A DNA stretch of 64,000 nucleotides from Verrucomicrobiota bacterium (lineage in GTDB: Bacteria; Verrucomicrobiota; Lentisphaeria; JABSQK01; JAJFLO01). This document shows positions 19,013-61,780 of this stretch, piece by piece; within the stretch, counting starts at the first letter, position 1; the number at the start of each line of letters is the position of its first letter. Both the position numbers and the translations under genes were made by a program. Location: assembly GCA_021772675.1 (NCBI GenBank), contig JAJFLO010000040.1, positions 5,083 through 69,082 of the forward strand, read 5' to 3'. Under the pieces are notes generated by a model, which was not told where the DNA came from, searched no databases, and saw nothing but the letters and a program-made list of their open reading frames with translations.

Positions 19013-19016
19013 ATTA

Positions 19017-34285: not shown

Positions 34286-34361
34286 GCCAAAGTAGCTCAG
34301 TTGGTAGAGCAATTCACTCGTAATGAATAGGTCAGCGGTTCAAATCCGCTCTTTGGCTCCA
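34286..34361 (+). tRNA. tRNA-Thr (anticodon CGU), CCA encoded
   Basis: The cloverleaf was folded by hand. Acceptor is GCCAAAG/CTTTGGC, the D-arm reads GCTCAGTTGGTAGAGC, the anticodon stem is ATTCA/TGAAT with loop CTCGTAA, and the T-arm is GCGGTTCAAATCCGC. Ends with discriminator T and CCA. Confidence 0.9.
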
Positions 34362-35842: not shown

Positions 35843-36370
35843 ATGACAGGACAACGTATTGGCTATATCAGGGTTAGTACCTTTGACCAGAACACAGATC
35901 GTCAATTGGAAGGTATACAAGTTGATCGTATTTTTACGGATAAAGGTATTCACCGGGAACAACTGGAAATATTAATAACTTTTGTTCGAAGTGGTGACAC
36001 CGTTGTCGTACACAGCATGGATCGGTTAGCACGTAATCTCGACGATTTGCGTCGCATTGTTCAATTACTCACGAGAGATGGGATTCGCATCGAGTTTATC
36101 AAGGAAAATCTGTCTTTTACAGGCGAAGATTCGCCAATGGCAAACTTAATGTTGTCTGTAATGGGTGAATTCGCTCGAAAAACTGGATTGGACTGGTCAG
36201 TCGTTTCCCGCCACTTAAAGTTACTAAACCTGCCCTTTCCTATTTTAGAATATCTAGAAAAGAATCAAACGCCTGAAGTATTAAAACAATGTCACCTAAA
36301 ATATTTATGCAGCCTTACAAAATTATCGGAGAAAGAATGTATTATAAGATTTTCTACAGATATCGGATAA
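35843..36370 (+). pseudogene. serine recombinase (resolvase/invertase) fragment
   Basis: The N-terminus IGYIRVSTFDQNTDRQL...GDTVVVHSMDRLARNLDDL...FTGEDSPMANLMLSVMGEFA is canonical. The conserved DK-x-SGK block is shortened (DKGIHREQL). After GEFA the sequence departs from the expected EFER..IRERQ helix into unrelated text. No C-terminal HTH is present. Confidence 0.6.
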
Positions 36371-39395: not shown

Positions 39396-39908
39396 TTAAT
39401 CGAAGAGTTCTTTCCATTCTGTAAACGAGATCCGGTTCCATTCCAGAGGAACTACACTTCCAAATTTGATCATCTTATCGGAAACGATTAAGTAATTATC
39501 GTGAACCGCTTCCACAATGCCGGAGCTAATTCGCCAATAATTATCATCCTTCAGATAAGTCTCAAACTCCCATTCTTCAATGTCTTTATAACCTTCCGGT
39601 GCATATTGGATGATATCGCCAATTAGACTGGCAGCAATACATTGATCAATATAGAATGACTGCGGTGAGCTGTTTTCCCTCAATGCCAATTTTTCCTGAA
39701 ACGTTGAAAGTGTGGACAAATCTGCAATCAATTCAGCTATTTTACTTACGTTGAGTGGATCATCTTGTTCTAATTTTTTAACAGCAAATTTATGAAGTTG
39801 GTGAGTATCGTAGACCGTTTTATTACTGTAAGGCGATTGATAAGGGTAACGGTATGAACTATTAACATAAAAAAAATGGAACTTCTCGGATATCTGTAAA
39901 ATGATCAC
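39396..39908 (-). pseudogene. displaced C-terminal ~157 codons of the upstream giant gene (separated by the IS insertion)
   Basis: From YVNSSYRYPY... onward the ORF continues the reading frame of 41237-46217 once the IS and one target-site copy are removed. The segment LNVSKIAELIADLS...SFYIDQCIAASLIGDIIQY is homologous to the C-terminus of the 46523-51937 protein. Confidence 0.8.
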
Positions 39909-41228
39909 CTTTTAATAAGGTGTCGATTTGATAATCGGAGGAACTGGCAATATAGCCTTCTTAATTTTTGAAACAACAAAAATTAAGGAGAGGCCATGTC
40001 AACCAGTTTACTTTATCATACTCAAGGAATCCATGATTTTAAATTTGAATCTTTTGATTTCACAGGCGGACAAACTGTCGCAACGATTCATCGAGATGAA
40101 GACAAGTTTCACTGCCCATGTTGCAACAGTTTGCGGACAACGCCAACATTTATTGGGACCCGCAAAATTCAAAGTCTGCCGATAGGGAGCCATCGTTTTT
40201 TCGTGCGAGTAAAGATGCATCGTATCCGGTGCAGTGATTGCGCTGCATTTCTTATGGAAAAATTGCCCTTTATTACTTCAGAGAAGGCGCGGTACACGAA
40301 GGCATTAGCACGAACCGTCATAGAGCTCCGTCCAGAAATGAGCATCTCAGCGATTGCAAAGTATTTCGGTTTACACTGGACAACTGTCAAAGAGATAGAA
40401 AAGAAGCACCTAAAGAAAAAGTACAAAAATGTTCCCTTGTCGGAAGTTCGGGTGATTGGCATAGATGAAATTTATGTTGGCAAAAATAGATATTTGACGG
40501 TTGTTCGAGATCTTTACAGTGGCGCAGTCCTGCATGTCGGGGAAGGCAAAGGGGGCGATAGTCTTGAAGCGTTTTCCCTACGCCTCAAATACTCAACATG
40601 CAGGATTGAAACTGTTGCTGTTGATCTTTCAGCTGCTTATACCTCGTGGATCAATAACAACCTGTCGGAAGCAACAATTGTCTACGACCATTTTCATGTT
40701 GTTAAGCTGATGAATGAAAAACTCGACAAGATTCGACGACGGACAATGTCGGAGCTTGAAGATGAACAAAAGAAAATGCTGAAAAACAAACGCTGGTTGC
40801 TTCTGAAAAATGTTGAAAATCTCGATACTGATAAGGAAAAATCTCTTGATCAATTACGTGAAACTTACAAAGAATTAGGCGATGCAAGTATCCTCAAAGA
40901 ATCACTAAGAAACATATACTCTATCGTTCCCGACGGGTATATGGCCCGTGTAGCATTCCAGGATTGGTGCAAACTTGCAATAGACACTGGCATACCCGAA
41001 ATGAAAACCATGGCAAGTACTATTACTTCTCATCTTGACGGAATCGTCGCTTACTGGAATGAAGGGATAACCTCTGCAGCCATGGAAGGATTCAATAATA
41101 AAATTCGATGGCTAATCAGGCAAGCTTACGGATATCACGACCAAGAATATTTCAAACTCAAAATCTTTGACTTGCCAAAATTGCGCATCGTGAAAAACCT
41201 ATGATTTTACAGATATCCGAGAAGTTCC
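39878..41228 (+). mobile_element. ISL3-family insertion sequence (1351 bp)
   Basis: 25-nt perfect terminal inverted repeats GGAACTTCTCGGATATCTGTAAAAT. The 8-bp direct repeat AAAAAAAT lies at 39870-39877 and 41229-41236. A single transposase ORF is present. Confidence 0.88.
39996..41204 (+). CDS. ISL3 family transposase
   Basis: 402 aa. The N-terminal zinc-finger-like region reads CPCC...CSDC. The DDE region reads VIGIDEIYVGK...VAVDLSAAY...DHFHVVKL, typical of ISL3. The ORF ends inside the right inverted repeat. Confidence 0.9.
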   Translation: MSTSLLYHTQGIHDFKFESFDFTGGQTVATIHRDEDKFHCPCCNSLRTTPTFIGTRKIQSLPIGSHRFFVRVKMHRIRCSDCAAFLMEKLPFITSEKARYTKALARTVIELRPEMSISAIAKYFGLHWTTVKEIEKKHLKKKYKNVPLSEVRVIGIDEIYVGKNRYLTVVRDLYSGAVLHVGEGKGGDSLEAFSLRLKYSTCRIETVAVDLSAAYTSWINNNLSEATIVYDHFHVVKLMNEKLDKIRRRTMSELEDEQKKMLKNKRWLLLKNVENLDTDKEKSLDQLRETYKELGDASILKESLRNIYSIVPDGYMARVAFQDWCKLAIDTGIPEMKTMASTITSHLDGIVAYWNEGITSAAMEGFNNKIRWLIRQAYGYHDQEYFKLKIFDLPKLRIVKNL

Positions 41229-44200
41229 AAAAAAATGTTGTGTCGGATTGCTCAAATTTGTTAACCAAAGTGCTGTATAGTATAAATTTGAAGAATTCCC
41301 AATCGAATCTGAAGGGTTACTAAACAGTTTTGGTGAAAACTGACTATCGTAAAAAATGTTTATATATCCATTTTCCACAATGTCATTCCCATAGACATCA
41401 ATAGCTTCAACTTTTCTTATCGATACATTGACATTCACTTGATGGGGTTTCTCAACAAATCGAATTGGTGCAACCGGCAGACCATCGGCAACAGATGCTC
41501 CCAATAAAATAGCACCGTTTGGCCTACACAAGAGATATTGTTCCGAATTGTTAGAATCTTCAACAACTAGCAAATCTGGTCCAGATGAATAAACTTTCTG
41601 ATCTTGAAAAATTGAAGGAATGTAAATATTATCCTGTATTGATACAGAGGAAGTTACACCATTTATGTTGAATAGTTTCCCCCGGGAATTTCCAATTTCA
41701 TTAGCAATGTCAAAATTCCAGAGTTCAACTTTGCCATGTTCTAAATGGAAATTGCTGCTAAGAAATCCTTTAACTTCTGATAGAGGATAGAATAATCCTA
41801 TAGATGTGCGTCGATAATCGTCCGCTTCGACACTTAAAAGGTCGTTCATGTTTGGAAACTCATAGATCAGTATATAGGGATTAGTCACAGAGACCTCACT
41901 ATCAGTTGTCGTGATTAAGCCTGATTCAGAGTCAATTTCGATGGCCCCTATTGGATGTCGATCAAACATTACGGGGCCAATTGAATCTAAATCATTAGCT
42001 GAGGCTGAACCTAAGAGTACTACTCCATTTGAATTTTTAAGTACATAACTTCCAGAATATTTTTGATGCACCCAAAAATCACCTCGCCTCGTATAGAGTA
42101 TTTTTCTGTCCTTTTCCACGACAAAGAACCCCTCACCCCTGATTGCAATGTTTCCACCGCCACTATAATACATATCGGTTTTGTTCATAAGAATACTGCC
42201 CTTCCAGTGAACAGATCTGTTTACGATTCCTATGGATGAATTTTCAATACTGGATTGTTGATCCTCAACTTTTATTGGAGACAGATCGCGATATAAGTCG
42301 TAATCCAAACCGACTAGTTGGTCCGGATTAGAAAACCGTCGAATACTTACAAATTTATTGTTAACGATACTCTTTCCGAAATAATCAAAAGCTCTTATTT
42401 CGCCAGATTTTCGATCAATACGAATTGATTTCGGGTATTCGCTAAATTGTATCGGGTGGAGCAGTCCCTCATTTTTTTCCCTGGAGCCAAGCAATACTAT
42501 ATCGTCTCTGAACGCTAACACATATTTTCCAGAGTTTTCTGCGTCTTCTTTCAGATTGTAAAGATAATAATATATAAAAAAATACGGCATGTAAAGAGTT
42601 TCTCCTCGGTACATGACAGAAAGATAAATTGATCCCGTATCGTTATTTTCAGATTCGTAAGCTGATTTAAAATGGCTAAAGTCCCTAATCGAATGCTGAA
42701 GCACATCGATATTGCACTTTTCTAACATACCTTGACGGATAGCGACGTTAGTAGAGTTGATCTTTTTTGCTGAATTGGTTTCTCGAAAGACTCCAAAACT
42801 TCTGCAATGGTAAGGGCCGATTTCCACTTCTTCAAGCTCGTCGAGATTCAAAAATTGATGTATCTGTATATAAGCGTTCTCGACTTCAACGCTTTCACCA
42901 GATTGATTAAATAATAAATATTTTTCAACATGTGGCGTGATTATTGTTTTTATTCTCTCGTTATTAAATATTTCAATATTTTTCGAATCGACTTTGCCGT
43001 TTGTACCAACAGTTAAAGATCCGGGAAAATTACTAAAACGTACAGGTCCAGTCGTTTTTCCAAATTCAGATTCCGCACCTAATAAAATTGCGCCATTGGG
43101 GCGACGTAAAATAAATGTTCCCGGTAAATCAAAATCTTCCTCCAGAGAAAAATCTCCGAGTCGCGAATATAGGTTTTCTCCCTCAAATCTTACCCGAAAA
43201 AAGCCGTTCCCATCAATTGCAAAATGTGTTAGCATGTCAGTATTTTCGATTGGTCCGTTTGTCCAAACGATACGTTGTTCTTTTGACACAGACAATGAAC
43301 TCGCCAAACTTCCCTCGCGAATTGAAGCCTCTGAAGGAAGAATTTTATTAGCAAGCGTGGTTTCTCGGTAGATTCCTAATGACGGATCAAGTGAGTCATC
43401 GTCATCAATTCTAATCAACCCGTCCGGATTCGAAAATCTGTATATTCCAACAAATTCGTTTTCTACTAGGCTATTACCCTGTTCATCTTTTGCTTTTAGA
43501 ATTGCTGCATCATAATCGACTGAAATATATGACGTCCATGCTGTAAATCTAACAGGACCTGCAGGGTCACCCTTTAGGGCAAAAGAGCCCATTAGAACAG
43601 CCCCATTCGGACGAATTAGAAGATAGGTTCCAGGTATTTCCAAATCTTCGATTAAATTGAAATCACCCGCACGAGTATAGACTATTTCATTTTTGAAAAA
43701 CACCGCAAAAAATCCTTCGCCGTCTATCGCCAAATCATATCTCCTATTCGTATTTTCTAAAACATTATTATCCCAATCAATATATTTGTTAGGTGTCATC
43801 TCTTCGGGACTTGAAATATGCCCTTGTGATACACTCTTAAAAACAATCGTTTTTTCCGTCGTTCCTGCATTCTTGTGATAGATATCGGAATCGATCAGCT
43901 CTAATGTCTCATTATTGCTAAAGTCTGTAATTTTGATAAATTCGTTTTCAACAAGGCTATCGCCATTATTATCGACCGCGACAACCCGACCTGAAAATGC
44001 TCTGATACTAATGTTTTCCGGATATTGAGAGAAACGCACCGGACCGGAAAGTTCTCCATCTGATTCTTGCGCTCCCAACAGAATGGCACCGTTTGCTCTG
44101 CTTAATACATATCCGCCGGCATTTTCTGGATCGGGTTTCAGAAAGAAGTCGCCGGTTTTTGTAAATCCGGTCTCGCCGTCATATTCAACGGCAAAAAAAC

Positions 44201-46217
44201 CATCGCCAATAATCGCAATATGCGTATCTCTCCCCGTTTCAACGATGGACCGAGCAGATGATTGAATTACTTCGAATTTAGCAACTATCTGTCGATCCTC
44301 CGTCATTGCTACAGTAGTGTTGGTCACGCCAGAATCGCTAACACCCTCGCCAACCCAGCTGATAAAACGATAGCCCGGTTCGGGGGTCGCTATTATCGGC
44401 ACGAATTCTCCTTGCTCGTAATCGCCATCACCTTCGATAGTTCCAGCTCCATCGGGTTCAATCGAAATGGTCAAACTAATAATATTATCATCTAATCCTG
44501 TTTGGAATACGTGAACCATATCAACTGGAGTAGTCCCAAGAAAAACCGACCATTCTATCCTTGCTGTTCCCGCTGATCCGGTTCGAATATAGTAAATTTT
44601 GCTATCATCTGCAGTATAAGATAGCCATTCACCATCATTCGAAAGTGAGATTTGTCTAACTCCATTTCGGCCGTGAACCCAAACATTCCTCCATTTTTCT
44701 TTCATAGGATTATATTCAAAACACCGGATTTTCCCACCTCCGAATAACGGATCATCATCCCCCAAACTGGACGTAAATACCCGCACTTTGCCATTCAAGT
44801 TGTCGATATTGTGATCCAATACAATATTATTGGGATTTTTCCCAAGCGCAGTACTAATTGTCCAGGAAATACATTCACCACCATCTTTTTGCATTGCATG
44901 CAGAACTCCTCGAGATCGATCTGCCCGACTATAAAAGATCCAGTTGTTATTAGTTGACGAGGTAACAACGGGTACACTATCGCTCCAGAATTCGATTATT
45001 GATTCATCACATGACAACTGCGAATCAACTTCTGAGAGAATTGCATGCCCCTCAAGATTATAATTCCCGTTATTATTCAAACTGGTCGCCCATGCATTTC
45101 CGCTTTCTGTAACCCAAAGTGAAGAATAGCTGTTACCCGTTAGACTTCCCAGGGAGATTGGCTGAGCAGTCTGTATACCATACACCATCAAATTGTTGTC
45201 ATTCATGTAAAAATATCCGTACCCACCCGAATACGAACGACTCAATTTCATCCCATTTCCTGGTAAATCCGCAGCAATAAATCTGCCGGAGCTAGCATCG
45301 AAAAGTTCGAAAAGTCCATCATATTCAATGGCAACATGAATTCCATCTGGGAACGGTAATAATTTTCTAACTGAAATACTGGGTATATAGCCGACAATAT
45401 CTTGTGTTACGACGTCGATAACAGCCAATCCATCTTCCAGACCGACAAGTGTCAGTGAATGTTGACCAAAGCGGAAATTATCGTCCCGTTTGATCATACG
45501 AAATTCCTCAATCATTTGATCGTCATGTTGGTAGACCACACGGATCCGGTTTTCTCCAGTTTCTAACGGAATGACTACCGTAAAATTGTCATCAGTATGA
45601 AGATCTAATAAATTAGGATTGAGTATCTGATCATTTACGTATATCTTGAGTATAGTATTCGATCTTATTTCCGCGAACCCTGTCAGTAGAATATACTGAT
45701 AATTGGTCGTGACTAAGGGATTTTGTGGAGTACGAATATGAAGATGCGATGATGCTGAAGCGGCTCGGGACGATGTGGTTACTTGATTGAGGTGGATTTG
45801 ACTAGATTGCAATCCTTCTTCTGCGGTAACAGTACCAATACGTCTGCTATCAATATTGATACTTTGAGATTCTTCAATTTTCGCGGAATGATGGTCCGTT
45901 TTAATTGATAGTTTGTCTGTTGTATTACTGATTTTTGTGGGATAATTAACTGAGTGCGAACTTCTCTCGTTAGAGGATATTGAATCATTCTGGGCAGACT
46001 TTTTTTCTTTTGAAAATTTATCTGAGGCATGTCTTGAAACATCCTGATTTTGAATTTTTCTTACTACGCTATTCAGTGCGATTACCAATTTATTTTGGGG
46101 ATAACACAGAATTGTGAGTCCCGAAAACAAGAGTATAAGTTTTACGCTTTTTCTGGATCTGAATGTCATTATAATACCTTTTAGCACACCACGACTCTTG
46201 CGTCCCGGGAAAAACAC
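41199..46217 (-). pseudogene. giant secreted protein with tandem flagellar-rod/hook-like modules, copy 1, truncated by ISL3
   Basis: 1672-aa ORF whose last 9 codons are IS-derived. It is a paralog of 46523-51937, with high N-terminal identity by eye. The reconstructed uninterrupted length is about 1820 aa. Confidence 0.8.
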
Positions 46218-46522: not shown

Positions 46523-49500
46523 TTATTTCTTAACATACCATGGGAATAACGTATCACCTCCAGGTTCCGTGAATGTGAATTTCTGTGGAAATTTGGCAGC
46601 AAATATGATCTTCTTGTCATCAACGAGTAAAATAATTTCGCGGTATGTGATATGGATTCCTTTCACTATTCCAGTCTCAATTTCCTTAACAAAATTTTTG
46701 TCTGCTGATACATGTAAATGTCCCTTTCCATATGTATCTACGTAGTAGAAATATCCATATGGTACACGTGTGCCTCCATAGACTAAGGATCCATATGGAA
46801 GGTATTTAATCATATCACCAATCAGACTAGCGGCAATACATTGATCAATGTAGGATGAAAGTGGCGAACCTGGATTAATTAATTCCAATTTATCTTCAAC
46901 TGATGAAAGGTTGGATAATTTGGCAATTAGATTTCTTATCTCACCTATATTCAATGGATCTATGTATGAGAATACTTCGAGTATTACACTATAAAATTGA
47001 TCGGTTTCATAAAAGGTAGATTTATAATTTTGCTGTGTTAATACCTCATATTTTAATGGCGACATTGACAGTGCAGTGTTATACAACGTGGGATGTCTAC
47101 CTGTGTTCCAAATAGATAAACTTGACTGTGGATTCTCTCCATAAACAGATGATTCGTTACCTTCATGTAACGAGAAGTGATTATCAAAAAATAAATCGAT
47201 ATAAGCATTGCTAACAATGTTATTTCCCTCGATATTCGTCGCTTCTATTCTCTGTGCCGTTACATTGATTGATACCTGATTAGGTTTTTCAACGAATCGA
47301 ACCGGCGCGGTCGGCAATTCATCGGTTGCTGAGGCTCCCAATAAAATGGCGCCGTTTGGTCGGCACATTAGATACTGTCCCGAATTATCAGGATCTTCAA
47401 CAACTAGCAAATCTGGTCCCGACGAATAAACTTTTTCGTCCTGAAAAATAGCGGGAATATATAGATAATCCAAGACAGAAACCTTAGACGAAATTCCATT
47501 AATATCATACATTTTCCCTCGACTGTTGCCAAGATCGTTTGCAATATCAAAATTCCAACGTTCGATTGCACCCTGTCTTATCGTTAGGTTCTCGGTCCTT
47601 GTTCTTGTAACCTCTAAGGGGCAATAGAATAATCCTAACGGGCTCATACGATACGGATCGATTTTTATATCAACAAGATTACTGATATCCGGAAATTCAA
47701 ATATTATTATGTATGGATTTGTCACAATAAGCTCATATCCAGTACCAGTAACAAAACCGGTTATAGAGTCAATACTAACTGTGGATGGAACCTCATTGAA
47801 TGTTACCGGTCCAGTCAATTCATTACCACTTGCTGAATCTGTGCCCATGAGTATTGCACCATCTGGACGGGCAAGAACAAAGACCGACGATTTCCCATTT
47901 GGAATCTCTATGATACTGAAATCACCTCGTTTACTATAAATTATTTCGTTAAGAAATTTAAAAGTAAAAAAGCCGTTCCCAATAATTGCAATATTACTGA
48001 CATAATTTGGTAGTATCTGAGCGACAATACTTCCTTTCCAGTTTACGGATATGTTGGTAACTGTTTTTAATAACTTGTCCCCGGTTTGTGAAGTCTGAGT
48101 TGATTGATTATTCTCATTCTCCACGGACGATAAATCTCGATAAAGGCCATAATCCAAACCTATTAATTGGTCAGAATCAGGAATGTGTCGAATACTAATA
48201 TATTTATTCTCGACGATACTCGCTCCATGGTAATCATAAGATTTCACTTCGCCTGATATCGAATCAATTCGAATTGATTTCGGATTCTCGCTAAATCGTA
48301 TCGGCTGAAGCGGTCCGCTATTTTTCTCGGCGGTACCGAGCAACGTTACTCCATCAACTACGGATATTATATAGTTTCCGGGCTTCTCGGGATCCTCTGT
48401 TAGAGGAAACTTATAAATGCCATGAAGTGGAGCATAGAGAATTTCCCCGTTGTACAAAACAGAGAAATAGATTGATCCTGAATTATTAATCTCGACTTTT
48501 TGTGTTGATCTAAATCGGAGAAGATCTCGTTTAACCTGTTTATCTATGTCAATGTTGCAGCCTTCTAAGAGTCCTTGTATTATACGGCTTTTACTGTTAT
48601 TAATTTTACCTGCAAATTCAACTTCTCGAAATAGTCCATGTTTTCGGCAATGATAAGGTCCGATTTCGACTTCTTCTAATGCATCGGGGGTCATAAATCG
48701 ATATGTCTGGATGTACATATTTTCAACTAAACCGTCAGCGTTTAAATCGGTTTCTATAAGATTTCCCCTACGTTGATCTACCTTAAAAGATGATGGCATA
48801 TCGAAAAAACGAACACGCCCTATAGAATTACCATTTTCCTTATCAGAACCTAACAAAATCGCCCCATTTGGTCGGCGTAAAATGAAGGTCCCAGACAAAT
48901 CCGGATCTTCTTCTAGGGAAAAGTCTCCTAACCGTGAAAGTAAATGTTCTCCCTGAAACTCGACCAGAAAAAAGCCTGTGCCAATAATCTCAAGATGCGT
49001 TCGCATGTAAGTGAATTCAGTCGGGCCTTGATTCCAAGCATCAGGATCAATTGAGACGGACAAGGAACCTGTCAACATTCCTTGCCGGATTGCGGTCCTT
49101 GAAGGAGAAATTTTGTTAGCGAGTGTAGTTTTCCGATATATTCCCATGGAAGAATCAATTGAAATATCGTCGTCAATTCTGATCAACGCGTCTGGATGCG
49201 AAAATCGATACACACCTATAAATTTGTTTTCGACTATACTATTACCGTTATTATCCGTTGCACTGACATTTCCAGTATTTGAACCAATTGAAAAAGACTG
49301 TACCGGGCCATTGAATCGAACCTGCCCAACAGGCTCGCCATCTTGGATCGTGGAACCAAGTAGAATAGCTCCGTTGGGACGACTCAGTAGAAATGTTCCC
49401 GGCATGTCCATATCTTCTACAAAATCAAAGTCTCCTGCACGAGTGTAAACAATTTCATCCTTAAATAATACTGCAAAAAATGCAGCACCTTCAAGAGCCA

Positions 49501-51937
49501 TGTGAGTTTGCCTACCCGTATTCTCTCTTTCATCGTTATACCAGTCAACGTATTTCTTAGGCTCAATATTTTCAGGAGATACAATATGGCCCTGAGACAG
49601 GTTCTTAAATCTTACCAATTTCTCCGTGGTTAAATCGCTTGAAGACTTTATATCATCAACAATCGTTTCTAACGTCTCCTCGTTATCATACGTATTAATT
49701 TGAATAAAGGCGTTTTCGACAATGTTAACTCCATGATCAGTCGCTCTTACCTCACCCGACAATGCGTTGATGTCAATACTCTCTGGAAATTGAGAGAAAC
49801 GGATTGGACCGGCGAGCTCCCCTTCCGCCTCTTGCGTTCCCAACAAAATGGCACCGTTTGGTCTGCTTAATATATATCCGCCGGCGTTTTCCGGATCGGG
49901 CTTCAGAAAAAAGTCACCTGTTTTCGTAAATCCGGTCTCGCCGTTATACTCAACGGCGAAAAAACCGCCGCCAACAATCGCAATGTGCGTCTCTCTCCCC
50001 GTTTCAACAATGGATCGAGCAGATGACGGAACCGCTTCAAATTTAGCAACTATCTGTCGATCCTCCGTCATTGCTACAATAGTATTCGTCACGCCAGAAT
50101 CGCTAATACCCTCTCCAACCCAGCTGACAAAACGATAACCTGGTTCGGGTACCGCCGTTATCGGTACTAATTCTCCTTGCTCGTAGTCTCCATCACCTTC
50201 GATAGTTCCCGCCCCAATGGGTTCAATTGATATGGTCAAATTAATAATATTGTCATCTAATCCTGTTTGGAATACGTGAACCATATCAACTGGAGCAGTC
50301 CCAAGAAAAACCGACCATTCTACCCGAGCCGTTCCCACAGATTCGGTCCGAATATAGTAAATCTCGTTATCATCATTTGCAGCATAGGATAGCCATTCAC
50401 CGTCATTCGAAAGTGAGATTTGTCTAATTCCATTTCGGCCGTGAACCCAAATATTCCTCCACTTTCCTTTGATAGGACTATATTCAAAACACCGGATTTT
50501 TCCACCTCCAAATAGAGGATCAATATCTCCCTGACTGGACGAAAATACCCGCTGCCCGCCATGCAGGTTGTCGACTTTGCGATCAAGCACAACATTATTA
50601 GGATTTTTCCCAAGCGCACCACTAATTGACCAAGAAACACATTCATCGCCATCTTTTTGCATCGCATGCAGAAATCCCAAAGATCGGAATCCTCGGCTAT
50701 AAAATATCCAGTTGTTATTTGTTGAAGAGGTCACGATCGGTACACTATCGCTGCGGAATTCTTTTGTTGATTCACCGCATGACAACAGTAAATCAACGTC
50801 CGAAAGAACTGTATGTCCCTCAAGATTATACGTCCCATTTTCATTCAAATTGGCCGTCCAGGCGTTTCCGCTCTCAGTAACCCAAAGTGATGAATAATTG
50901 TCACCCAGTAGGTTTCTCAGAGAGATTGGCTTATCAGCGTGAGTGTCGTACGCCATCAAACTGTTGTCATTCATATAAAAATATCCGTATCCATCCGAAT
51001 ACGAACGACTCAATTCCATCCCATTTCCTGGTAAATCCGCAGCAATAAATCTGCCGGAGCGAGCATCGAAAAGTTCGAAAAGTCCATCATATTCAATGGC
51101 AACATGAATTCCATCCGGGAAGGGTAATAATTTTCTAACTGAAATCGTGGGTATATAACCGACAATATCACGGGTAACGACGTCAATAACAGCCAGTCCA
51201 TTTTCCAGACCGACAAGTGTCAGTGAATGTTGGCCAAAGCGGAAATTATCGTTCCGTTTGATCGTACGTACTTCCTCAATCATTTGATCGTCATGTTGGT
51301 ATACCACACGGATCCGGTTCTCACCAGTTTCTAACAGAATGACTGCCGTAAAACGGCCATCATCATGCAGATCTATTAAATTAGCATCAAGTATCTGGTC
51401 ATTTACGTATATATCGAATACAGTGTTCAATCTAATTTCCGCCAACCCTGTCAGAAGAATATGTTGATAATTAGTCGTGACTAAGGAATTTTGTGGAGTA
51501 CGAATATTAAGATGCGATGATGCTGAATCGGTTCGGGACGATGTGGCTACTTGACTTGGGTGGATTAGGCTGGTTTGCCATTCGCCTTCTATCGCAACAG
51601 TTCCAATACGTCTGATATCACCTTTGCCACTTTGTGATTTTGATTTTTTTGCATAAGAATGGTTAGTCTTACTTGATACATTGTCAGTTATTTCACTAAA
51701 ACTTATGGAATTGCTAATTATGTGCGAAATTCTCTTGTTGCCGGATTTCGAATCGCCCTGGCCAGCTCCAGACTCCGTTTCGTCGAGATATTTATCTGAG
51801 AGGTCTCTTAGACCATTTTGATTCTGAATTTTGCTTACTACACTATTCAGAGCATTTACCAGTTTATTCTGTGGATAGCAAAGAATGGCGATCCCCGCGA
51901 ACAAGAAAATCAATTTTACCCTTTTTCTGAAAGTCAT
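46523..51937 (-). CDS. giant secreted protein (1804 aa): signal peptide, Ser/Thr-rich linker, beta-rich region, InlB-B-repeat-like domain, about six FlgG/FlgE-like modules, conserved C-terminal domain
   Basis: N-terminus MTFRKRVKLIFLFAGIAILC. The InlB-B-like segment reads GTIEGDGDYEQGELVPITAVPEPGYRFVSWVG. Repeated blocks follow (see findings): I.G.GFF.V.(F/Y)..E..Y(T/S)R.GDF ... RPNGAILLG ... GPVRF ... IVEN.(F/Y)I...RF..PD.L ... I(R/I)QG.L. Confidence 0.85.
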   Translation of the reverse strand: MTFRKRVKLIFLFAGIAILCYPQNKLVNALNSVVSKIQNQNGLRDLSDKYLDETESGAGQGDSKSGNKRISHIISNSISFSEITDNVSSKTNHSYAKKSKSQSGKGDIRRIGTVAIEGEWQTSLIHPSQVATSSRTDSASSHLNIRTPQNSLVTTNYQHILLTGLAEIRLNTVFDIYVNDQILDANLIDLHDDGRFTAVILLETGENRIRVVYQHDDQMIEEVRTIKRNDNFRFGQHSLTLVGLENGLAVIDVVTRDIVGYIPTISVRKLLPFPDGIHVAIEYDGLFELFDARSGRFIAADLPGNGMELSRSYSDGYGYFYMNDNSLMAYDTHADKPISLRNLLGDNYSSLWVTESGNAWTANLNENGTYNLEGHTVLSDVDLLLSCGESTKEFRSDSVPIVTSSTNNNWIFYSRGFRSLGFLHAMQKDGDECVSWSISGALGKNPNNVVLDRKVDNLHGGQRVFSSSQGDIDPLFGGGKIRCFEYSPIKGKWRNIWVHGRNGIRQISLSNDGEWLSYAANDDNEIYYIRTESVGTARVEWSVFLGTAPVDMVHVFQTGLDDNIINLTISIEPIGAGTIEGDGDYEQGELVPITAVPEPGYRFVSWVGEGISDSGVTNTIVAMTEDRQIVAKFEAVPSSARSIVETGRETHIAIVGGGFFAVEYNGETGFTKTGDFFLKPDPENAGGYILSRPNGAILLGTQEAEGELAGPIRFSQFPESIDINALSGEVRATDHGVNIVENAFIQINTYDNEETLETIVDDIKSSSDLTTEKLVRFKNLSQGHIVSPENIEPKKYVDWYNDERENTGRQTHMALEGAAFFAVLFKDEIVYTRAGDFDFVEDMDMPGTFLLSRPNGAILLGSTIQDGEPVGQVRFNGPVQSFSIGSNTGNVSATDNNGNSIVENKFIGVYRFSHPDALIRIDDDISIDSSMGIYRKTTLANKISPSRTAIRQGMLTGSLSVSIDPDAWNQGPTEFTYMRTHLEIIGTGFFLVEFQGEHLLSRLGDFSLEEDPDLSGTFILRRPNGAILLGSDKENGNSIGRVRFFDMPSSFKVDQRRGNLIETDLNADGLVENMYIQTYRFMTPDALEEVEIGPYHCRKHGLFREVEFAGKINNSKSRIIQGLLEGCNIDIDKQVKRDLLRFRSTQKVEINNSGSIYFSVLYNGEILYAPLHGIYKFPLTEDPEKPGNYIISVVDGVTLLGTAEKNSGPLQPIRFSENPKSIRIDSISGEVKSYDYHGASIVENKYISIRHIPDSDQLIGLDYGLYRDLSSVENENNQSTQTSQTGDKLLKTVTNISVNWKGSIVAQILPNYVSNIAIIGNGFFTFKFLNEIIYSKRGDFSIIEIPNGKSSVFVLARPDGAILMGTDSASGNELTGPVTFNEVPSTVSIDSITGFVTGTGYELIVTNPYIIIFEFPDISNLVDIKIDPYRMSPLGLFYCPLEVTRTRTENLTIRQGAIERWNFDIANDLGNSRGKMYDINGISSKVSVLDYLYIPAIFQDEKVYSSGPDLLVVEDPDNSGQYLMCRPNGAILLGASATDELPTAPVRFVEKPNQVSINVTAQRIEATNIEGNNIVSNAYIDLFFDNHFSLHEGNESSVYGENPQSSLSIWNTGRHPTLYNTALSMSPLKYEVLTQQNYKSTFYETDQFYSVILEVFSYIDPLNIGEIRNLIAKLSNLSSVEDKLELINPGSPLSSYIDQCIAASLIGDMIKYLPYGSLVYGGTRVPYGYFYYVDTYGKGHLHVSADKNFVKEIETGIVKGIHITYREIILLVDDKKIIFAAKFPQKFTFTEPGGDTLFPWYVKK

Positions 51938-52219: not shown

Positions 52220-53329
52220 TTATGGAGCCGATATAGAATTGTATTCCCCACCATTAAAAAAAATCAAAACAATGTCGCTTATTTGAATAATGTCACCATT
52301 TGCCAATTTTTTATTGACAATCTTAATACCGTTTATAAATACGCCGTTTTTCGATTCGCAATCGTTTAGATGCCAGCCATCACAATCACTGGTGATTTGA
52401 CAGTGTTCTCGCGAGATGAAATCATACTTCAAATACAGTTTATTCTGGGATCCTGAGCCAATTGTAAAGGGTGAAGCAATGGTTTGCCATTTAGCTTTTT
52501 GTTCACGATTTTCATTGGTCTCGATAACAAGAACACATGCATCGGAATATTCGGTTGGGGGATATCGTCTGAGCAAATCAGTCAAATACCGAATTCTATT
52601 GTCAATTTCTCGACTTAACAGACCATTATCCGAGTTTGAATGATCACCACAGTTGACGCTAGTTTTACATTGTGTATCATTGTCAATTTCATCAAGTTTC
52701 TCATCCAAACCAGTTACGTTATCCATTAACTTTTTAACTTCATTTTTAAGAAAACCAACGACACGATTCCGATGCTGATACACCAAATTTCGTGTGATAT
52801 TGAGTTTATTTGCGACGATATCGGCATTTTGTTGCTCCAATACATACATTTGAAAAGATCGCCATGTCATATCATCAATTCGTTTGCAAACTATCTTCAA
52901 AACGGCATTTAAAACCTCTCGTCTCATTGAATCGTCAGCCATTTGCCATGAAGCATCGGACGTTTCGATAATTTCGGATAGCGCTTCGTCGGGTAATTTC
53001 TCAATGGGCAACGTTTGTAGCTGACGGGCATATAGCGAACCAATACGAGAAATCGCAATTCGAATTAAATAAGTACGGAATTTTCCTTTCACTTGATCAT
53101 AACTAAATTTGGGTAAATATTTCATGAGCTGACACATTGTTTCCTGAAGAACATCCGCTGCCAGTGATTCAGTACACCCCTGTTTTCGACAAAATCCTAT
53201 CACTAACGGGGAATAAAGATTATAAAACTGATTCCAAGCCTCATCATCATTCAAATCTTTCATTCGTTCGATAAGTGACAAAGACGTTTTAATACTTGAA
53301 CCACCAGTGTTTTGTCGGTTTCTTGGCAT
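52220..53329 (-). CDS. sigma-70 family (ECF-like) sigma factor fused to a C-terminal FHA domain
   Basis: The region 2-like block reads LAADVLQETMCQLMKYLPKF..FRTYLIRIAISR. The region 4 HTH-like block reads DIVANKLNITRNLVYQHRNRV. The C-terminus FTIGSGSQNKLYLKYDFISREHCQI...NDCESKNGVFINGIKI is FHA-like. Confidence 0.78.
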   Translation of the reverse strand: MPRNRQNTGGSSIKTSLSLIERMKDLNDDEAWNQFYNLYSPLVIGFCRKQGCTESLAADVLQETMCQLMKYLPKFSYDQVKGKFRTYLIRIAISRIGSLYARQLQTLPIEKLPDEALSEIIETSDASWQMADDSMRREVLNAVLKIVCKRIDDMTWRSFQMYVLEQQNADIVANKLNITRNLVYQHRNRVVGFLKNEVKKLMDNVTGLDEKLDEIDNDTQCKTSVNCGDHSNSDNGLLSREIDNRIRYLTDLLRRYPPTEYSDACVLVIETNENREQKAKWQTIASPFTIGSGSQNKLYLKYDFISREHCQITSDCDGWHLNDCESKNGVFINGIKIVNKKLANGDIIQISDIVLIFFNGGEYNSISAP

Positions 53330-53874: not shown

Positions 53875-56800
53875 ATGAACAATCGAAAACGACATGATGT
53901 TCGACGAAAACGGATCAAACGGCCGATCTGTTTTAGCAGAAAATTGGGTCAAAATATCAATTGCACCGATAGATTGAATTTGAGAAATTCCACAGCCTTC
54001 CACTATTTGAGATTTTCTATTAAAAACCATACATGCTGCAATGTCAGATATCGGCGAATCAAGGGAATGGAAGATGACACTGATTATTCAAATAATTCTA
54101 ACCATGTAAAACTTCTACCCAAATCGGATTCGGTAAAAAAGCATTATAGCGAATTTGGCGATGAAACATCGACAAAATATCAGAGTTCGTTAGGTACGCC
54201 ATGGATAAACGATACCTATAATCGTATATCCTCTCATAGTGACTTGATCGATAGAATATTAACTGGCTCTTCTGAGGAGAAATATGAATTTGTTAGTAAT
54301 CTTGCACAAGGGGGCATGGGCAAAATCACATTGGTACGGGATAAGAATTGCCAGCGAAAGACCGTAAAAAAACAGATACTTGTTAATAGAAATTCGTCAA
54401 AAGAATTAATCATCCGTTTTATTCGCGAAGGACAAATTACTGCACAATTAGAACATCCCAATATTGTTCCGGTATATGAAATTGGTCAGGACCATGAGGG
54501 ACAAGCATACTATACAATGAAACATACGGGAGGATCGAATCTAGGTGATATACTAAAAGGACTTGTCACAAACGATGAAACAACAGTACGAAACTATCCG
54601 ATTTCACGAATTCTTAATATTATCAAATCGATTTGTGACGCTTTGGCTTATGCGCATTCAATGAACGTTGTTCATCGAGATCTTAAACCGGAAAATATCA
54701 TGGTCGGTCAATTCGGAGAAGTCGCAGTACTTGACTGGGGTCTTGCGAAAATTTTGGATGAATCGGATATCTCAAACGAGATAGAATCCTTTGTAGAAAC
54801 CGATCTCGAGATAAATAAAAAATTAAAGAAAATTGATGCTAATAAAATCGATATAGATCTCCCAGACGACTTAAGAAATTTATTAAAGACTTACGAAGGG
54901 GCTATCGCCGGAACACCAGAATATATGGCCCCTGAACAATTAATTGGCGATGTCAAATTGATAAATAGGTTGACTGACATCTACGGTTTGGGAGCAATTC
55001 TCTATAGCGCATTGACGCTCAAGACGCCGCAGAATGGTAAAAATGCTGCGGTAATTTATAACAAAATCAAGAGCGGCGAAATCCCACCCCCGATTCGTTG
55101 CAATAAAAAAAAGAAATATGTTCACTGTCCCCTGGGCAAGATCCCAAAACCGTTGTCAGACGTCGCGATGAAAGCGATGGCCTTCGATCAAAAAAATAGA
55201 TATCACTCAGTTAATGAATTTAAGCAAGAAATTGAGAATTATCAAGCCGATATCGCGACGGCTGCGGAAGAGGCGGGATGGTCACGAATTCTTTGCTTAT
55301 TGGTGAAACGAAACAAGATTCTTGCGATTAGTTTCACGATCATTTTGTCATTTGCTTTGTATTCCTACCAGCAAATAAAAGATCGAGAATCACTGGCACA
55401 ATATCGTTTGGCGGAGAGTCATCTTGCCCAAGGAGACGTTTATACCCGATCCAATGAATGGTACACTGCAAAAAAGCACTATCAAATTTCTTATGATTTA
55501 TTTCGTGAATTAAGGCAGCCGACTTTTCCAGCAGAGGTTCGCCTTTTTGACGTCTATAAGCATGCACCTGATCGTCTCAATAGCTTTGTGCATCCTCAAA
55601 TTCCTACCTGTTTCGATATTTCCGATAACGGACGAACTCTGATAGCCGGAAATAGTAATAATCGCCTAATCCTTCAAGATATCGTTACAGGGAGAAAAAT
55701 AAATTCTATTCTCAGGTCGAAATTAGAATCTCCTCCGATAGCGATCACACTGGGACCCGATCAAAAATATGCCTACACAGGACATTATGATGGATCTGTG
55801 GTTATATGGGACATAATTAGAGGGATCGAATTGACAGTTATTAAGGACGCTCATGAAGGCCCTGTTTATCAAGTGATTCCGATGTTGGCAGATGGATCCG
55901 TTATATCTGCTGGTGCGGACGGTGTCGTAAAAATATGGAACTCAGTATCTGGACAAAAAAAGCAAACCTGCTGTGAGCATCAATCAGATATCAGAGTTTT
56001 CGAAATATCAAAGGATAATTCCATGCTTCTTTCTGGAAGTACGGACGGAGCCGTTAAATTATGGGATATCCCTCAGGGGAATTTGGTCGCATCAATCCAG
56101 GAAATCAGTGTAGAGGTTTTATCTCTATCTGGAAACTTTAACTTTAGTAATGTTGCAGTAGGCTATCGAGATGGTCGCGTAACCGTCTGGAACCCCCACA
56201 CCGATAAATCACTATCTACGATGCCTCGTCCAGTGGCTGTCCACAGTATTCAATTGTTACCGGACAGTAAGTCTTTATTGGTAGGCTATCAAGATTCCTC
56301 GATGGTGAAATTTAATACAAAAACTCTGGAATCGATTGATGAGTATCACGGCCTTTACAGAGAGATCAATGACATGGTATTTTCACGTGATGGGCGAATT
56401 GCTGCCCTCCGCCGGAATAGTACCAATATTGATGTAATCCCAGTTATGCAGCACGAATTTGTCAAATTTGAGAACCACACCCCATTTGTAAAGTGCTCTA
56501 CGCTTTCCAATGATGCACGATTAATGGCATCCGGCGGCCAAAACAATACTGTTAATTTATGGGATGTTCAGACGGCAAATATACTAAGAACGTTTTCTGG
56601 CCATGAAAATATTGTAACTCATATAGCATTATCTTCAGATAATACAAAGATGGTCACTGCCAGTCTCGATAAGACATTGCGTGTCTGGGACGTGAATACA
56701 GGTAGTATTCTACATACTCTTGAATATAAATCCAGTCAATTTAGCAAGAATGAATTACCCATTTACGATCATCCGTTCGAGGCACTTGCCCTAAACAGTC

Positions 56801-57657
56801 GGATGGTGATATCCGGAGATCGTATCGGTAATATTTTATTCTGGGATATTGAATCGGGTAAGTTGGTCAAACGTTTCGCCACCTTAGATGGCCCGATAAG
56901 TTCGATTACGGTTTCACCATCAGGGAAGAAAATTCTTGCGGTTGAAAGAAACATGAAGGTCTCATTATGGAACCTAAAATCCAATCACCTTATTTGGGAA
57001 CAATCAATCGAACTATTAACCTGTGCAACCTTAGTTCCTAACCGAAAATCGGTTGTAACTGGAGAGCGAAATGGCACCGTTCGATTATGGAATATTGGGT
57101 CGAAGAATAAGTCTATCGAAATTGGATCCAGCTGGAGTCGAATAACTAGCGTTGAGTGTTCGCCAAATGGACGATATGTCATAACCGGAGATAAAGATGG
57201 AGTAATAACGTTTTGGGATATTCGAACGCAAAAAGAAATAGGAAACTTTAAAGATCACATAAATAATGTTAACACTGTCTCTTTTTCCAGTGATGGAACA
57301 AAAATTTTGTCTGGTGGAGGTAATGGCGAGATAATTATATACGATTTTTCAAGACCTCAAAAATACTCACTTTTTCGCATGGAAAAGAGAAATTGGATAA
57401 ACCTATCGGATGAAAATATTGATAATGTATTACGATACAGGTCTTTGGGAGAATGGTATGCCTTTCGAGGAGTATTTGATTGGGCTCACGTAGTACTTAC
57501 TAAAGTCAAACAAGAAAATATTCCTGTATCATCTTTCCTCATGGGACAATTGCAGTGGGATTTGGGTAATAACGAAGCTGCTGCCAATGAATTTAGATCA
57601 GCTTCTTCAGAACTCCCTCCATACTACATTAATTTACTATTAAATAGATTAGAATAA
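53875..57657 (+). CDS. Ser/Thr protein kinase with one TM segment and a long WD40-repeat region
   Basis: Hanks kinase motifs are LAQGGMGKI, VHRDLKPENIM, DWGLAK and GTPEYMAPEQ. The hydrophobic segment is ILAISFTIILSFALYSY. At least 10 WD-like repeats end in (I/V/L)W(D/N). An alternative start is ATG 54067 (MEDDTD...). Confidence 0.85.
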   Translation: MNNRKRHDVRRKRIKRPICFSRKLGQNINCTDRLNLRNSTAFHYLRFSIKNHTCCNVRYRRIKGMEDDTDYSNNSNHVKLLPKSDSVKKHYSEFGDETSTKYQSSLGTPWINDTYNRISSHSDLIDRILTGSSEEKYEFVSNLAQGGMGKITLVRDKNCQRKTVKKQILVNRNSSKELIIRFIREGQITAQLEHPNIVPVYEIGQDHEGQAYYTMKHTGGSNLGDILKGLVTNDETTVRNYPISRILNIIKSICDALAYAHSMNVVHRDLKPENIMVGQFGEVAVLDWGLAKILDESDISNEIESFVETDLEINKKLKKIDANKIDIDLPDDLRNLLKTYEGAIAGTPEYMAPEQLIGDVKLINRLTDIYGLGAILYSALTLKTPQNGKNAAVIYNKIKSGEIPPPIRCNKKKKYVHCPLGKIPKPLSDVAMKAMAFDQKNRYHSVNEFKQEIENYQADIATAAEEAGWSRILCLLVKRNKILAISFTIILSFALYSYQQIKDRESLAQYRLAESHLAQGDVYTRSNEWYTAKKHYQISYDLFRELRQPTFPAEVRLFDVYKHAPDRLNSFVHPQIPTCFDISDNGRTLIAGNSNNRLILQDIVTGRKINSILRSKLESPPIAITLGPDQKYAYTGHYDGSVVIWDIIRGIELTVIKDAHEGPVYQVIPMLADGSVISAGADGVVKIWNSVSGQKKQTCCEHQSDIRVFEISKDNSMLLSGSTDGAVKLWDIPQGNLVASIQEISVEVLSLSGNFNFSNVAVGYRDGRVTVWNPHTDKSLSTMPRPVAVHSIQLLPDSKSLLVGYQDSSMVKFNTKTLESIDEYHGLYREINDMVFSRDGRIAALRRNSTNIDVIPVMQHEFVKFENHTPFVKCSTLSNDARLMASGGQNNTVNLWDVQTANILRTFSGHENIVTHIALSSDNTKMVTASLDKTLRVWDVNTGSILHTLEYKSSQFSKNELPIYDHPFEALALNSRMVISGDRIGNILFWDIESGKLVKRFATLDGPISSITVSPSGKKILAVERNMKVSLWNLKSNHLIWEQSIELLTCATLVPNRKSVVTGERNGTVRLWNIGSKNKSIEIGSSWSRITSVECSPNGRYVITGDKDGVITFWDIRTQKEIGNFKDHINNVNTVSFSSDGTKILSGGGNGEIIIYDFSRPQKYSLFRMEKRNWINLSDENIDNVLRYRSLGEWYAFRGVFDWAHVVLTKVKQENIPVSSFLMGQLQWDLGNNEAAANEFRSASSELPPYYINLLLNRLE

Positions 57658-58132: not shown

Positions 58133-58924
58133 TTACTTATTTCGCTCGAATAGTGCAACTTCTCGCAAATCTCCCTGTTCAAACAATTCGGCCCTGATTT
58201 TTATCAAAGATACATCGTTCGGCCTTAGTTCAATCAGATCAGAAATAATTTCGATAGCATCGTACCAAATACCGTTTTCTGCAAGATCCTTGGCAAGGTC
58301 AACTTTGCTTTTTGCCCCCATTCCTGCAATGACTTCTGCAGGCGTATCAATTCTGGACAATAACGAATGAGCATATATATCTTTCGAACGATTATCAGGA
58401 GCTGAATCTGCAACAATATTAACTGTAAACTTGTACTTTACTTTTTTTTTCAACTTTACGTTTAAATCTGAAAGTTTGAATTTGTGAATTCCCGCGCGCG
58501 ATTTGCCTAATTCAAATGGTGAATCCAATAGCGATGTGCCTGTATCCGCGTTTAAGATTGAAACTTCAATTTTATTGGTCGTTTCATGAGACTGATACCA
58601 GTAGATGGTTGGTTGGGTCTTTGTGGTATAAGCAATATGGTCGGGAGAAAGAATAAATAAATTTGGCCTAAGGGCATCATCATGATTACGTATAACACTA
58701 TTAACTCGAACCTTTTCCTGGGTGGCAGGAGCTCGATAAAAAATTTCTGGTGGTGCATTATTAGGGTCTGCCGAGCAAATCAATGCGGTCAGTTCCATAG
58801 ACAAAAATAATACTAACGATAATTTAAGACAATGTTGTATCAAATGGTTAATTCGATACTTCATTTGCAGCAAGTTTCCGATGATTAAACCTGCTATTGC
58901 AATTAAAACGGATGTATTTATCAT
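58133..58924 (-). CDS. DUF928-like secreted protein
   Basis: 263 aa. A likely internal start is at 58864 (MKYRINHL...LSLVLFLSMELTALICSA, signal-like). PTIYWYQSHETTNKIEVSI resembles the DUF928 N-terminal signature, and the C-terminus is TPR-like. The assignment comes from motif memory and gene context only. Confidence 0.55.
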   Translation of the reverse strand: MINTSVLIAIAGLIIGNLLQMKYRINHLIQHCLKLSLVLFLSMELTALICSADPNNAPPEIFYRAPATQEKVRVNSVIRNHDDALRPNLFILSPDHIAYTTKTQPTIYWYQSHETTNKIEVSILNADTGTSLLDSPFELGKSRAGIHKFKLSDLNVKLKKKVKYKFTVNIVADSAPDNRSKDIYAHSLLSRIDTPAEVIAGMGAKSKVDLAKDLAENGIWYDAIEIISDLIELRPNDVSLIKIRAELFEQGDLREVALFERNK

Positions 58925-59421
58925 TTTTTCGTCCTTTGAGATTAAGTAGAACTGCTACAGTCTACACTATCTAAAGTTAAAAATTCATGTTGGAAAAAGC
59001 AGTCTAAAGAGATTCGATTTAGGACCTATGCTTATAAGGAATATTAATGCTCGTTTACAATCCTTTTTTTAAAGATACCCAGTTTATCCCCAAAAAATTC
59101 CAATTCGAATAAACGGACTCTTCTATGATAATACCTGAATAATATCTATTGTCTTATACTAATTCGATAATTTTTTTGAAAATATTTTTTGAGACATATA
59201 TCAATATTCAAATTAATGAGTTATGAGGAATATGATTGAACAAAATGGAGGTTTTGAATTATTTAGTATTGAAACTTCAGAGGAAAAAAATTTGAATATA
59301 ATATACCGTTAGACGTAAACGATTGATCTTTTTGAAGTTGTCCCCTATAATAAATCCATATAACCAGTCAGATTTAAATAAAATACAAAATAGTGCTGAA
59401 TATATAAGTGGAGACACCAAA

Positions 59422-61686: not shown

Positions 61687-61780
61687 CACATTTTAAACCA
61701 ATCTTCAAATACAGATTTTAACAACTATTTCTATGTTTAAAATAGACCGGATTATTGATCAAGTAGCTTTTATTGATATA

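Follow-up and report, generated by a model that had tools for sequence, protein, structure and literature searches.

We analysed a window of 64,000 nucleotides from a Verrucomicrobiota bacterium (Lentisphaeria), positions 5,083 to 69,082 of contig JAJFLO010000040.1. On its minus strand lie two tandem open reading frames (ORFs), genes A and B, which encode giant paralogous proteins. A is intact, and B is interrupted by an insertion sequence (IS) of the ISL3 family. The central ~960 residues of each protein form a block of six tandem modules that we identify, by sequence profile and predicted fold, with the D1 domain of the flagellar axial proteins FlgE, FlgF and FlgG. In both proteins this block stands behind a putative Sec-type signal and among domains of non-flagellar kind. 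Coordinates of the features are collected in Table 1.

Two giant paralogs and their domain order

Gene B, listed as an ORF at 41199-46217, starts at the ATG at 46169 rather than at the GTG at 46217, since the ATG parallels the start of A (MTFR...) and AAAGGTATTA is conserved just upstream in both genes. The ISL3 element within B ends in perfect terminal inverted repeats of 25 bp (39878-39902 and 41204-41228), carries an intact transposase ORF (39996-41204) and has an 8-bp target duplication, AAAAAAAT, on either side (39870-39877, 41229-41236). The annotated B ORF takes its last nine codons and its stop from the IS, and the displaced C-terminal part of B comprises ~160 residues. Excising the IS together with one target duplication restores a B ORF of exactly 1,804 residues, the same length as A. 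The domain order is identical in the two proteins: Sec-type signal, Ser/Thr-rich linker, beta-rich region, InlB B-repeat, six modules and C-terminal domain.

The N-terminus of A consists of a basic n-region and one 12-residue hydrophobic core (mean Kyte-Doolittle hydropathy 3.0); a hydrophobicity scan found no further transmembrane-like 19-mer anywhere in the protein. VNA/L (the slash marks the cut) is a possible signal cleavage site, judged by inspection. Two other kinds of signal were ruled out in the same way: the residues A-I-L before Cys20 make no lipobox, so that A is no lipoprotein, and the G/F..E motif of a prepilin-type signal is absent.

The linker is low in complexity (Ser plus Thr 27%, polar residues 64%). 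In the beta-rich region the best Pfam match, Glucodextran_B, is sub-threshold (E = 2.5e-4), a sequence search of the PDB gave no match, and no internal repeats of the kind found in a propeller were detected; residues 161-240 are possibly Ig-like. An earlier reading of this DNA, made from the sequence alone and called here the sequence-only reading, had placed a Sec-type signal, a Ser/Thr linker and an InlB-B-repeat-like domain ahead of the modules. This order is borne out by the hydrophobic core, by the composition and by PF18998 (E = 1e-14; 54.6 bits in A and 56.1 bits in B against a cut-off of 23.6). The private C-terminal domain of ~200 residues that it described finds no family in Pfam (E <= 10) or in a PDB sequence search, and it is present in B too, displaced by the ISL3 insertion.

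Motifs of the G.GFF and RPNGAILLG type occur six times per protein, in agreement with the proposal that both paralogs are built of about six concatenated units. The modules start at residues 642, 803, 972, 1140, 1306 and 1480 of A, and at 657, 819, 989, 1181, 1347 and 1519 of B as numbered from the GTG. The tandem repeat thus stands, though not quite with the unit of ~170-190 residues first given: modules 1-5 measure 161-192 residues, and the sixth is truncated to 120 residues in A and to 154 in B, IS-derived codons included. The two units per protein that had been called degenerate are modules 4 and 6, which have lost G.GFF; module 6 has also lost the QG.LE end.

Table 1. Position, strand and supporting evidence of the features of genes A and B and of the genes next to A.
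Feature	Position	Strand	Evidence or remark
Gene A, intact, 1,804 residues	46523..51937	minus	ORF and translation, domain matches
A residues 1-30, putative Sec-type signal peptide, MTFRKRVK + LIFLFAGIAILC	51848..51937	minus	hydrophobicity
A residues 31-160, low-complexity Ser/Thr-rich linker	51458..51847	minus	composition
A residues 161-565, beta-rich region	50243..51457	minus	80% identical to B
A residues 568-636, divergent InlB B-repeat (PF18998)	50030..50236	minus	E = 1.1e-14
A module 1, residues 642-802, FlgE-D1-like	49532..50014	minus
A module 2, residues 803-971, best preserved	49025..49531	minus	49% identical to P0004
A module 3, residues 972-1139	48521..49024	minus	46% identical to P0004
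A module 4, residues 1140-1305, degenerate	48023..48520	minus	without G.GFF
A module 5, residues 1306-1479	47501..48022	minus
A module 6, residues 1480-1599, degenerate	47141..47500	minus	without QG.LE end
A residues 1600-1804, private C-terminal domain	46526..47140	minus	40% identical to displaced B C-terminus
Gene B 5' part, residues 1-1644 from ATG	41237..46169	minus	architecture as A
B modules 1, 2 and 3	43764-44249, 43254-43763, 42678-43253	minus
B modules 4, 5 and 6	42180-42677, 41664-42179, 41238-41663	minus
ISL3-family insertion sequence in gene B	39878..41228	plus	Pfam DDE_Tnp_ISL3, 3.6e-64
Gene B 3' part, displaced C-terminal domain	39396..39877	minus	40% identity to A, E = 1e-26
ECF-type (extracytoplasmic function) sigma factor fused to FHA	52220..53329	minus	Sigma70_r2 4e-9, FHA 3e-15
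Ser/Thr protein kinase with WD40 propellers	53875..57657	plus	Pkinase 3.5e-35, WD40 families

The modules as D1 domains of flagellar axial proteins

The D1 profile PF22692 (LlgE_F_G_D1) is matched in both proteins, with E = 3e-14 in A, where the strongest stretch (residues 814-885) lies within module 2, and E = 2e-23 in B. The NCBIfam model TIGR03506 (FlgEFG_subfam) reaches 75.9 bits in A and 114.4 bits in B against a cut-off of 70.25, each score being a sum over several modules. The equivalog models of FlgE, FlgF and FlgG all remain under their cut-offs, FlgF in B coming to 175.8 of the 178.5 bits needed. Since TIGR03506 exceeds its cut-off, annotation pipelines would label A and B as 'flagellar hook-basal body complex protein', misleading motility predictions. 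When all 12 modules are combined, their profile aligns to residues 88-125 and 148-232 of the 260 in Salmonella FlgG, and a PDB sequence search with a single module matches a Pseudomonas FlgE D1 construct.

The fold predicted for a single module points the same way. An AlphaFold model of module 2 of B, made from the 12-module alignment, has a mean predicted local distance difference test score (pLDDT) of 83.8 and a predicted template modelling score of 0.81. When it was compared with the PDB by Foldseek, all 29 matches at E <= 1e-3 were flagellar rod-hook structures, namely FlgG fragments, polyrod, rod-hook complexes and a FlgE D1 entry (9wwj). The lowest E-value was 2.6e-6 (7bin_q), and the 20-kDa FlgG fragment 6jf2_A superimposes with a TM-score of 0.74 and a root-mean-square deviation of 2.9 A. 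The D1 domains of FlgG (6jf2, 7bin, 7cbm, 8wki) are the best structural matches at a sequence identity of ~20-23%; FlgG differs in having D0 and Dc and in forming the rod tube. From PF22692 and TIGR03506 above their cut-offs, the alignment with FlgG and the fold of the model, we conclude that the modules and the FlgE/F/G D1 domain are truly homologous, with a likeness far beyond chance.

The sequence-only reading had claimed this homology, and two of the checks it named, flagellar profiles and a single-module model compared with FlgG and FlgE, came out in its favor as regards D1. It went too far, however, in likening the units to whole rod or hook subunits down to their C-terminal segment. Neither PF00460 (N-terminal D0) nor PF06429 (C-terminal D0) has a match in A or B even at E <= 1. 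One module aligns with residues 78-229 of the 262 in the closest relative, a hook protein designated P0004 that is described below. No module residue falls on the N-terminal D0 columns conserved in its family (G12...F42 of P0004), the conserved D0 columns taken together are nearly empty of them, and the module ends with the segment equivalent to QG.LE.SNVD, at P0004 residue ~229. Judged from these alignments, each module is D1 alone, both D0 segments and Dc being absent. Within D1 about half of the family-conserved positions are kept, the core glycine and aromatic positions in 8-11 of the 12 modules.

Of the traits of an FlgE/F/G axial protein, A and B hence possess the D1 domain and the curated score, and lack the N- and C-terminal D0 segments, a flagellar gene context and, judged from sequence, an N-terminus of the type III secretion kind. 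In axial proteins the D0 segments provide the export signal and the inner coiled-coil tube. A protein with a Sec-type signal and no D0 would therefore be no substrate of flagellar type III export and would form no hook- or rod-like tube. The summed TIGR03506 score above the NCBI cut-off could still be read as the mark of an aberrant giant hook or rod subunit exported by the type III system. This we regard as exceedingly improbable, as such a subunit would have neither D0 segment, would begin with a Sec-type signal, would be encoded outside any flagellar operon and, at 1,804 residues with folded non-flagellar domains, would be unlike known substrates.

The preserved D1 fold bears on another idea, raised already in the sequence-only reading, that the chain is a covalent protofilament in which the six modules stack head-to-tail through the D1-D1 interface of the hook 11-start protofilament. 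The fold is indeed kept with high model confidence, several modules still have the end segments DW..G..E.T and QG.LE..N.D, and linkers of ~14-17 residues, of low confidence in the model, might span the axial repeat. Against this, D1 fragments without D0 have been crystallised as soluble proteins (FlgG 6jf2, FlgE D1 9wwj). Polymerisation depends on D0, which the modules lack; moreover, only about half of the conserved D1 positions are retained, and modules 4 and 6 are degenerate. We consider such a protofilament distinctly unlikely. A and B nevertheless represent a natural construct for asking which axial or lateral contacts D1 alone can make without D0.

Descent from a hook gene and history of the pair

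An HMMER search with the six-module region against 1.84 billion representative proteins (E <= 1e-3) returned 28 proteins, of which the paralog was the sole multi-module one; the rest were single-module proteins or fragments of 83-637 residues. Full-length relatives that we retrieved have typical D0 termini. The top match was P0004 (262 residues, E = 1.4e-35), with P0031 (265 residues) and P0013 (286 residues) as further relatives, all from uncultured bacteria. All three genes are flanked by flgD and by flbD-motA-motB-fliL-fliM, and the operon of P0013 additionally has fliF-G-H-I-J-fliK upstream. Since each gene thus sits at the flgE position of its operon, we assign the three proteins as hook proteins, FlgE. 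The Pfam matches of P0004 do not include the D2 domain PF07559. The proposed kinship with flagellar rod and hook proteins therefore holds as to the axial family, the nearest relatives being hook (FlgE) rather than rod proteins.

Modules 2 and 3 share 44-49% identity with P0004, whereas sister modules of one protein share 22-42%; the best-preserved modules are thus nearer to the hook protein than to their own neighbors. Corresponding modules of A and B are 42-67% identical. A neighbor-joining tree united the modules with P0004 and P0031 in 157 of 200 bootstraps and recovered the A/B pairs of corresponding modules in 136-200 of 200. This clade and this pairing imply that the six-module array came from a hook-type D1 and is older than the duplication into A and B. 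The sequence comparisons thus trace the modules to this lineage's family of short FlgE proteins without D2, and they indicate that the D0 helices and Dc were stripped off and D1 was multiplied six-fold before A and B arose.

The short FlgE and the modules have in common the motifs DW..G..E.T, H.AI.G.GFF, YTRAGDF, RPNGA.L.G, F.NPD.L and QG.LE.SNVD. FlgE differs in carrying one module between D0 helices (PF00460, PF06429), in having no signal peptide and in polymerising non-covalently. In contrast, A and B have six D1 domains in one chain, a Sec-type signal, extra non-flagellar domains and no flagellar neighbors. The short hook-protein family itself (260-290 residues) is encoded at L081 1050-1838, L082 952-1749 and L083 10001-10861, in operons that are otherwise canonical (flgD-flgE-flbD-motAB-fliLMN) and contain a pair of MotB-like genes. 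Large insertions at the D2 position occur elsewhere in the family (P0014, P0015 and P0018, 350-637 residues).

We looked for comparable proteins by several routes. A word-indexed search of 5.8 billion proteins with full-length A found only A itself, its paralog and one InlB-repeat protein; with residues 100-635 of A (50033-51640, minus strand) it gave zero matches and missed A and B too, so that this blank carries no information on relatives. The whole architecture was not found in genome contigs or metagenome contigs, tblastn against plasmids and phages gave nothing but an InlB-repeat match, and a literature search turned up neither tandem FlgE/FlgG D1 domains nor any of non-flagellar use. 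The earlier impression that no equivalent has been described is consistent with this literature search and with the paralog being the only multi-module protein among the 1.84 billion representatives. Within the searches made, we know of axial flagellar proteins only as single-module, type-III-exported, self-polymerising subunits, and A and B are predicted to be secreted repeat proteins with an unprecedented flagellum-derived module.

The two paralogs have not diverged evenly. Over residues 41-640, A and B agree at 73-77% of four-fold degenerate sites, and in module 1 at 63%; from module 2 onward to the C-terminus the agreement drops to 31-44%, which is nearly saturated. In the linker (residues 31-160) the proteins share 54% identity while synonymous sites are 77% identical. 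The high four-fold identity of the 5' third, set against near-saturation elsewhere, indicates that this third was homogenised by gene conversion. In the old part, protein identity still amounts to 41-62%, the C-terminal domain being the most divergent (~40-41%). Saturated four-fold sites beside such protein identity, with both ORFs at 1,804 codons, argue for purifying selection. By these sequence measures A and B are old full-length paralogs, of which B was recently inactivated by the ISL3 insertion. If this history is right, a hook D1 freed of its polymerisation and export helices, multiplied six-fold and kept under selection is a clear reuse of a core flagellar part.

The interruption of B and the origin of the family in a single sequencing run could also mean that we are dealing with a non-functional relic or an assembly artefact. 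This is highly improbable. Two ORFs of exactly 1,804 codons have kept orthologous module order, saturated synonymous sites stand beside conserved protein motifs, and codon usage is native: it correlates with that of core genes at r = 0.89 for A, 0.89-0.95 for A and B and only 0.64 for the IS, an outlier. Furthermore, an independent Logan assembly of run SRR15505515 reproduces the sigma-FHA gene next to A at 100% identity, followed by a partial downstream ORF that starts at A's position.

The same run offers a view of the host. The carA gene of the window is at most 70% identical to those of Lentisphaerota and other Planctomycetes-Verrucomicrobia-Chlamydiae (PVC) metagenome-assembled genomes; the Logan assemblies of SRR15505515 contain its exact protein and a stretch of 1,306 nucleotides 100% identical to the window. 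The flagellar contig that encodes P0004, L081, comes from this run too. Its G+C content is 38.7% against 40.5% in the window, and its codon usage correlates with that of the window at r = 0.88, the remaining FlgE loci giving 0.33 and -0.04. Its tetranucleotide correlation with the window is 0.949, where the window's own 6-kb chunks give 0.86-0.96 and other PVC loci about 0. The REP-like (repetitive extragenic palindromic) element of the window, described below, has no match in L081, which is only a 5.8-kb operon contig. As window genes and L081 share one run and matching composition, the host itself probably carries a flagellar operon; the evidence is circumstantial, strong but short of proof. 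The modules would then probably be ancient paralogs of the hook gene of a flagellated host, and no relic of a non-flagellate. That no flagellar genes lie nearby, as the sequence-only reading had noted, is true of the 64-kb window, in which none was found among the scanned ORFs of at least 120 residues; the closest relative of the modules is nevertheless encoded on a composition-matched flagellar contig from the same run.

A flagellated host opens the further prospect that A and B are Sec-exported accessories of the flagellum, with D1 modules that would dock, by D1-D1 contacts of the hook type, on the host's D2-less hook or rod as a coat, brace or periplasmic collar. There are precedents for Sec-exported coats on type-III-exported axial structures in spirochaete FlaA and Leptospira FcpA. 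FlaA and FcpA/FcpB are small proteins of flagellar regulons and are not known to be homologous to axial proteins; they illustrate that Sec substrates can work with such polymers. A flagellar operon is very probably present in the host, with a FlgE (P0004) that is D2-less and has D1 outermost, and it is to P0004 that modules 2 and 3 are closest. We nevertheless give this proposal only a small chance: the genes have a signalling- or conflict-type setting without a flagellar gene in scans of the window, modules only 22-42% alike would be unexpected if all six fit one lattice, one paralog is IS-inactivated, and other organisms with a short FlgE have no relative of A or B among the matches. Similarly low is our expectation that the modules keep hook-type D1-D1 contacts in either form, as a single-chain Sec-exported protofilament or by docking on the host's hook or rod. 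Were it true, A and B would be the first paralogs of axial proteins to act independently of type III export and yet rely on flagellar assembly interfaces.

A proposed segmented stalk and its genomic setting

The reading we prefer, and to which we give even chances, is that A and B are extracytoplasmic segmented stalks, envelope or surface proteins in which D1 has been reused as a spacer unit. A giant protein with six tandem D1 beta-domains at its centre would be exported by Sec. Residues 157-170 of the module model have pLDDT < 50, which suggests flexible joints between modules, and six D1 beads with linkers of ~15 residues might make up a segmented stalk with a length of tens of nanometres. 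Such a stalk would space the conserved beta-rich/InlB-repeat N-terminal part from the fast-diverging C-terminal domain of ~200 residues. InlB B-repeat domains are typical of surface proteins, and A and B, which are probably fibre-like, might serve as a surface fibre, as an adhesin or in motility.

Periscope proteins provide a functional analogy only, with a signal peptide and tandem beta-domains proposed to project a functional domain outward from the cell. Their repeats are reported to show gene-length variation (PMC8201768). In A and B, by contrast, identity between modules is only 22-42%, and each paralog has six of them; the module type is another, the organism is diderm, and no wall anchor is evident. 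Giant proteins with InlB B-repeats (PF18998/PF09479), such as the Bacteroidales protein P0003 (31% identity over 6% of A), show no likeness to A beyond that domain and contain no FlgE-D1 modules.

Several points weigh against a segmented stalk. The family is a singleton lineage without comparative support, and the whole case comes from one lineage, one sequencing run, and sequence and model evidence. Gene conversion is largely responsible for the likeness of the N-terminal halves, which need not reflect function, and the IS-disrupted copy, at least, must be dispensable. An AlphaFold model of residues 140-640 of A, made from a two-sequence alignment, is all-beta but, with a pLDDT of 34, too low in confidence to rely on. 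Neither terminal domain matches a family, and either end may be the anchoring or the acting one. Neither A nor B showed a two-partner secretion (TPS) domain, an autotransporter barrel or a sorting tag, and with no outer-membrane export or anchor signal the protein may stay periplasmic. Localisation, expression and stalk geometry are all inferential.

As to expression, the sigma-FHA gene immediately precedes A in the same orientation, and the kinase-WD40 gene is divergent from it. The sigma-FHA protein is a candidate regulator of A and B, and the kinase a candidate input to its FHA domain. The pair suggests phospho-threonine-dependent control, under which A and B would possibly be expressed. 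The upstream regions of A and B have only short patches in common, and scans for sigma-70 promoters and terminators were at chance level.

As to export, a gene for a TpsB (ShlB/POTRA) transporter lies at 37705-39360, and the region 58133-63943 encodes a DUF928 protein, a TPS-domain protein (59323-61686) and a CHAT-TPR protease. These genes bracket the block of A, B, sigma factor and kinase, as though a single two-partner-secretion/CHAT cluster had been split or A and B were nested in it. PF05860, the TPS domain, has no match in A or B; the separate protein at 59323-61686 carries it. A type II secretion/pseudopilin operon at 2744-7417, in which GspF is followed by minor pseudopilins resembling GspJ and GspK, might take Sec substrates, A and B among them, across the outer membrane.

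These neighbors lend some color to yet another idea, modelled on polymorphic toxins: the repeats might be a scaffold that presents the variable C-terminal domain as an effector, or delivers it, against competitors. At 41% identity this domain is where A and B differ most, and the many conflict-type genes nearby include the CHAT-TPR, TPS-domain and TpsB genes, the kinase and those for NACHT-FGE proteins diversified by a retroelement. The C-terminal domains of A and B are homologous, however, and have not been swapped. No toxin or immunity family is matched, no ORF of at least 100 residues for an immunity protein lies between A and B, and both proteins are without the TPS domain needed for the adjacent TpsB. 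We rate such a scaffold as improbable. PADLOC gave no match for A, sigma-FHA, DUF928, the TPS protein or TpsB, and for the kinase only generic matches.

The two halves of the window differ in their repeats. A REP-like element with the core CAGGAATGACCGAGTTAC is present in 16 copies within 7649-30511, where 0 are expected by chance. All copies lie upstream of 30.6 kb, and the 34-64 kb half, with A and B, is free of them. Tandem 88-nucleotide REP arrays at 13195-13763 and 14376-14553 flank an IS200-like Y1 transposase gene (13717-14340), and the arrangement looks like a pair of REP and REP-associated tyrosine transposase. Behind a tRNA-Thr (CGT) comes a serine resolvase/recombinase gene at 35843-36370 (region 34286-36370). 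The tRNA and resolvase, with no REP copies downstream, hint that 34-64 kb may be an old integrated island, against which the native codon usage speaks.

The retroelement is a diversity-generating one at 14595-33865, with a reverse transcriptase gene at 19017-20084 (minus strand) and a template repeat at 18885-19012. Its three variable repeats (14595-14722, 20518-20645 and 30779-30906) lie at the 3' ends of NACHT/STAND-FGE-sulfatase genes, and in one of them, VR1, 21 of 24 mismatches fall on template adenines.

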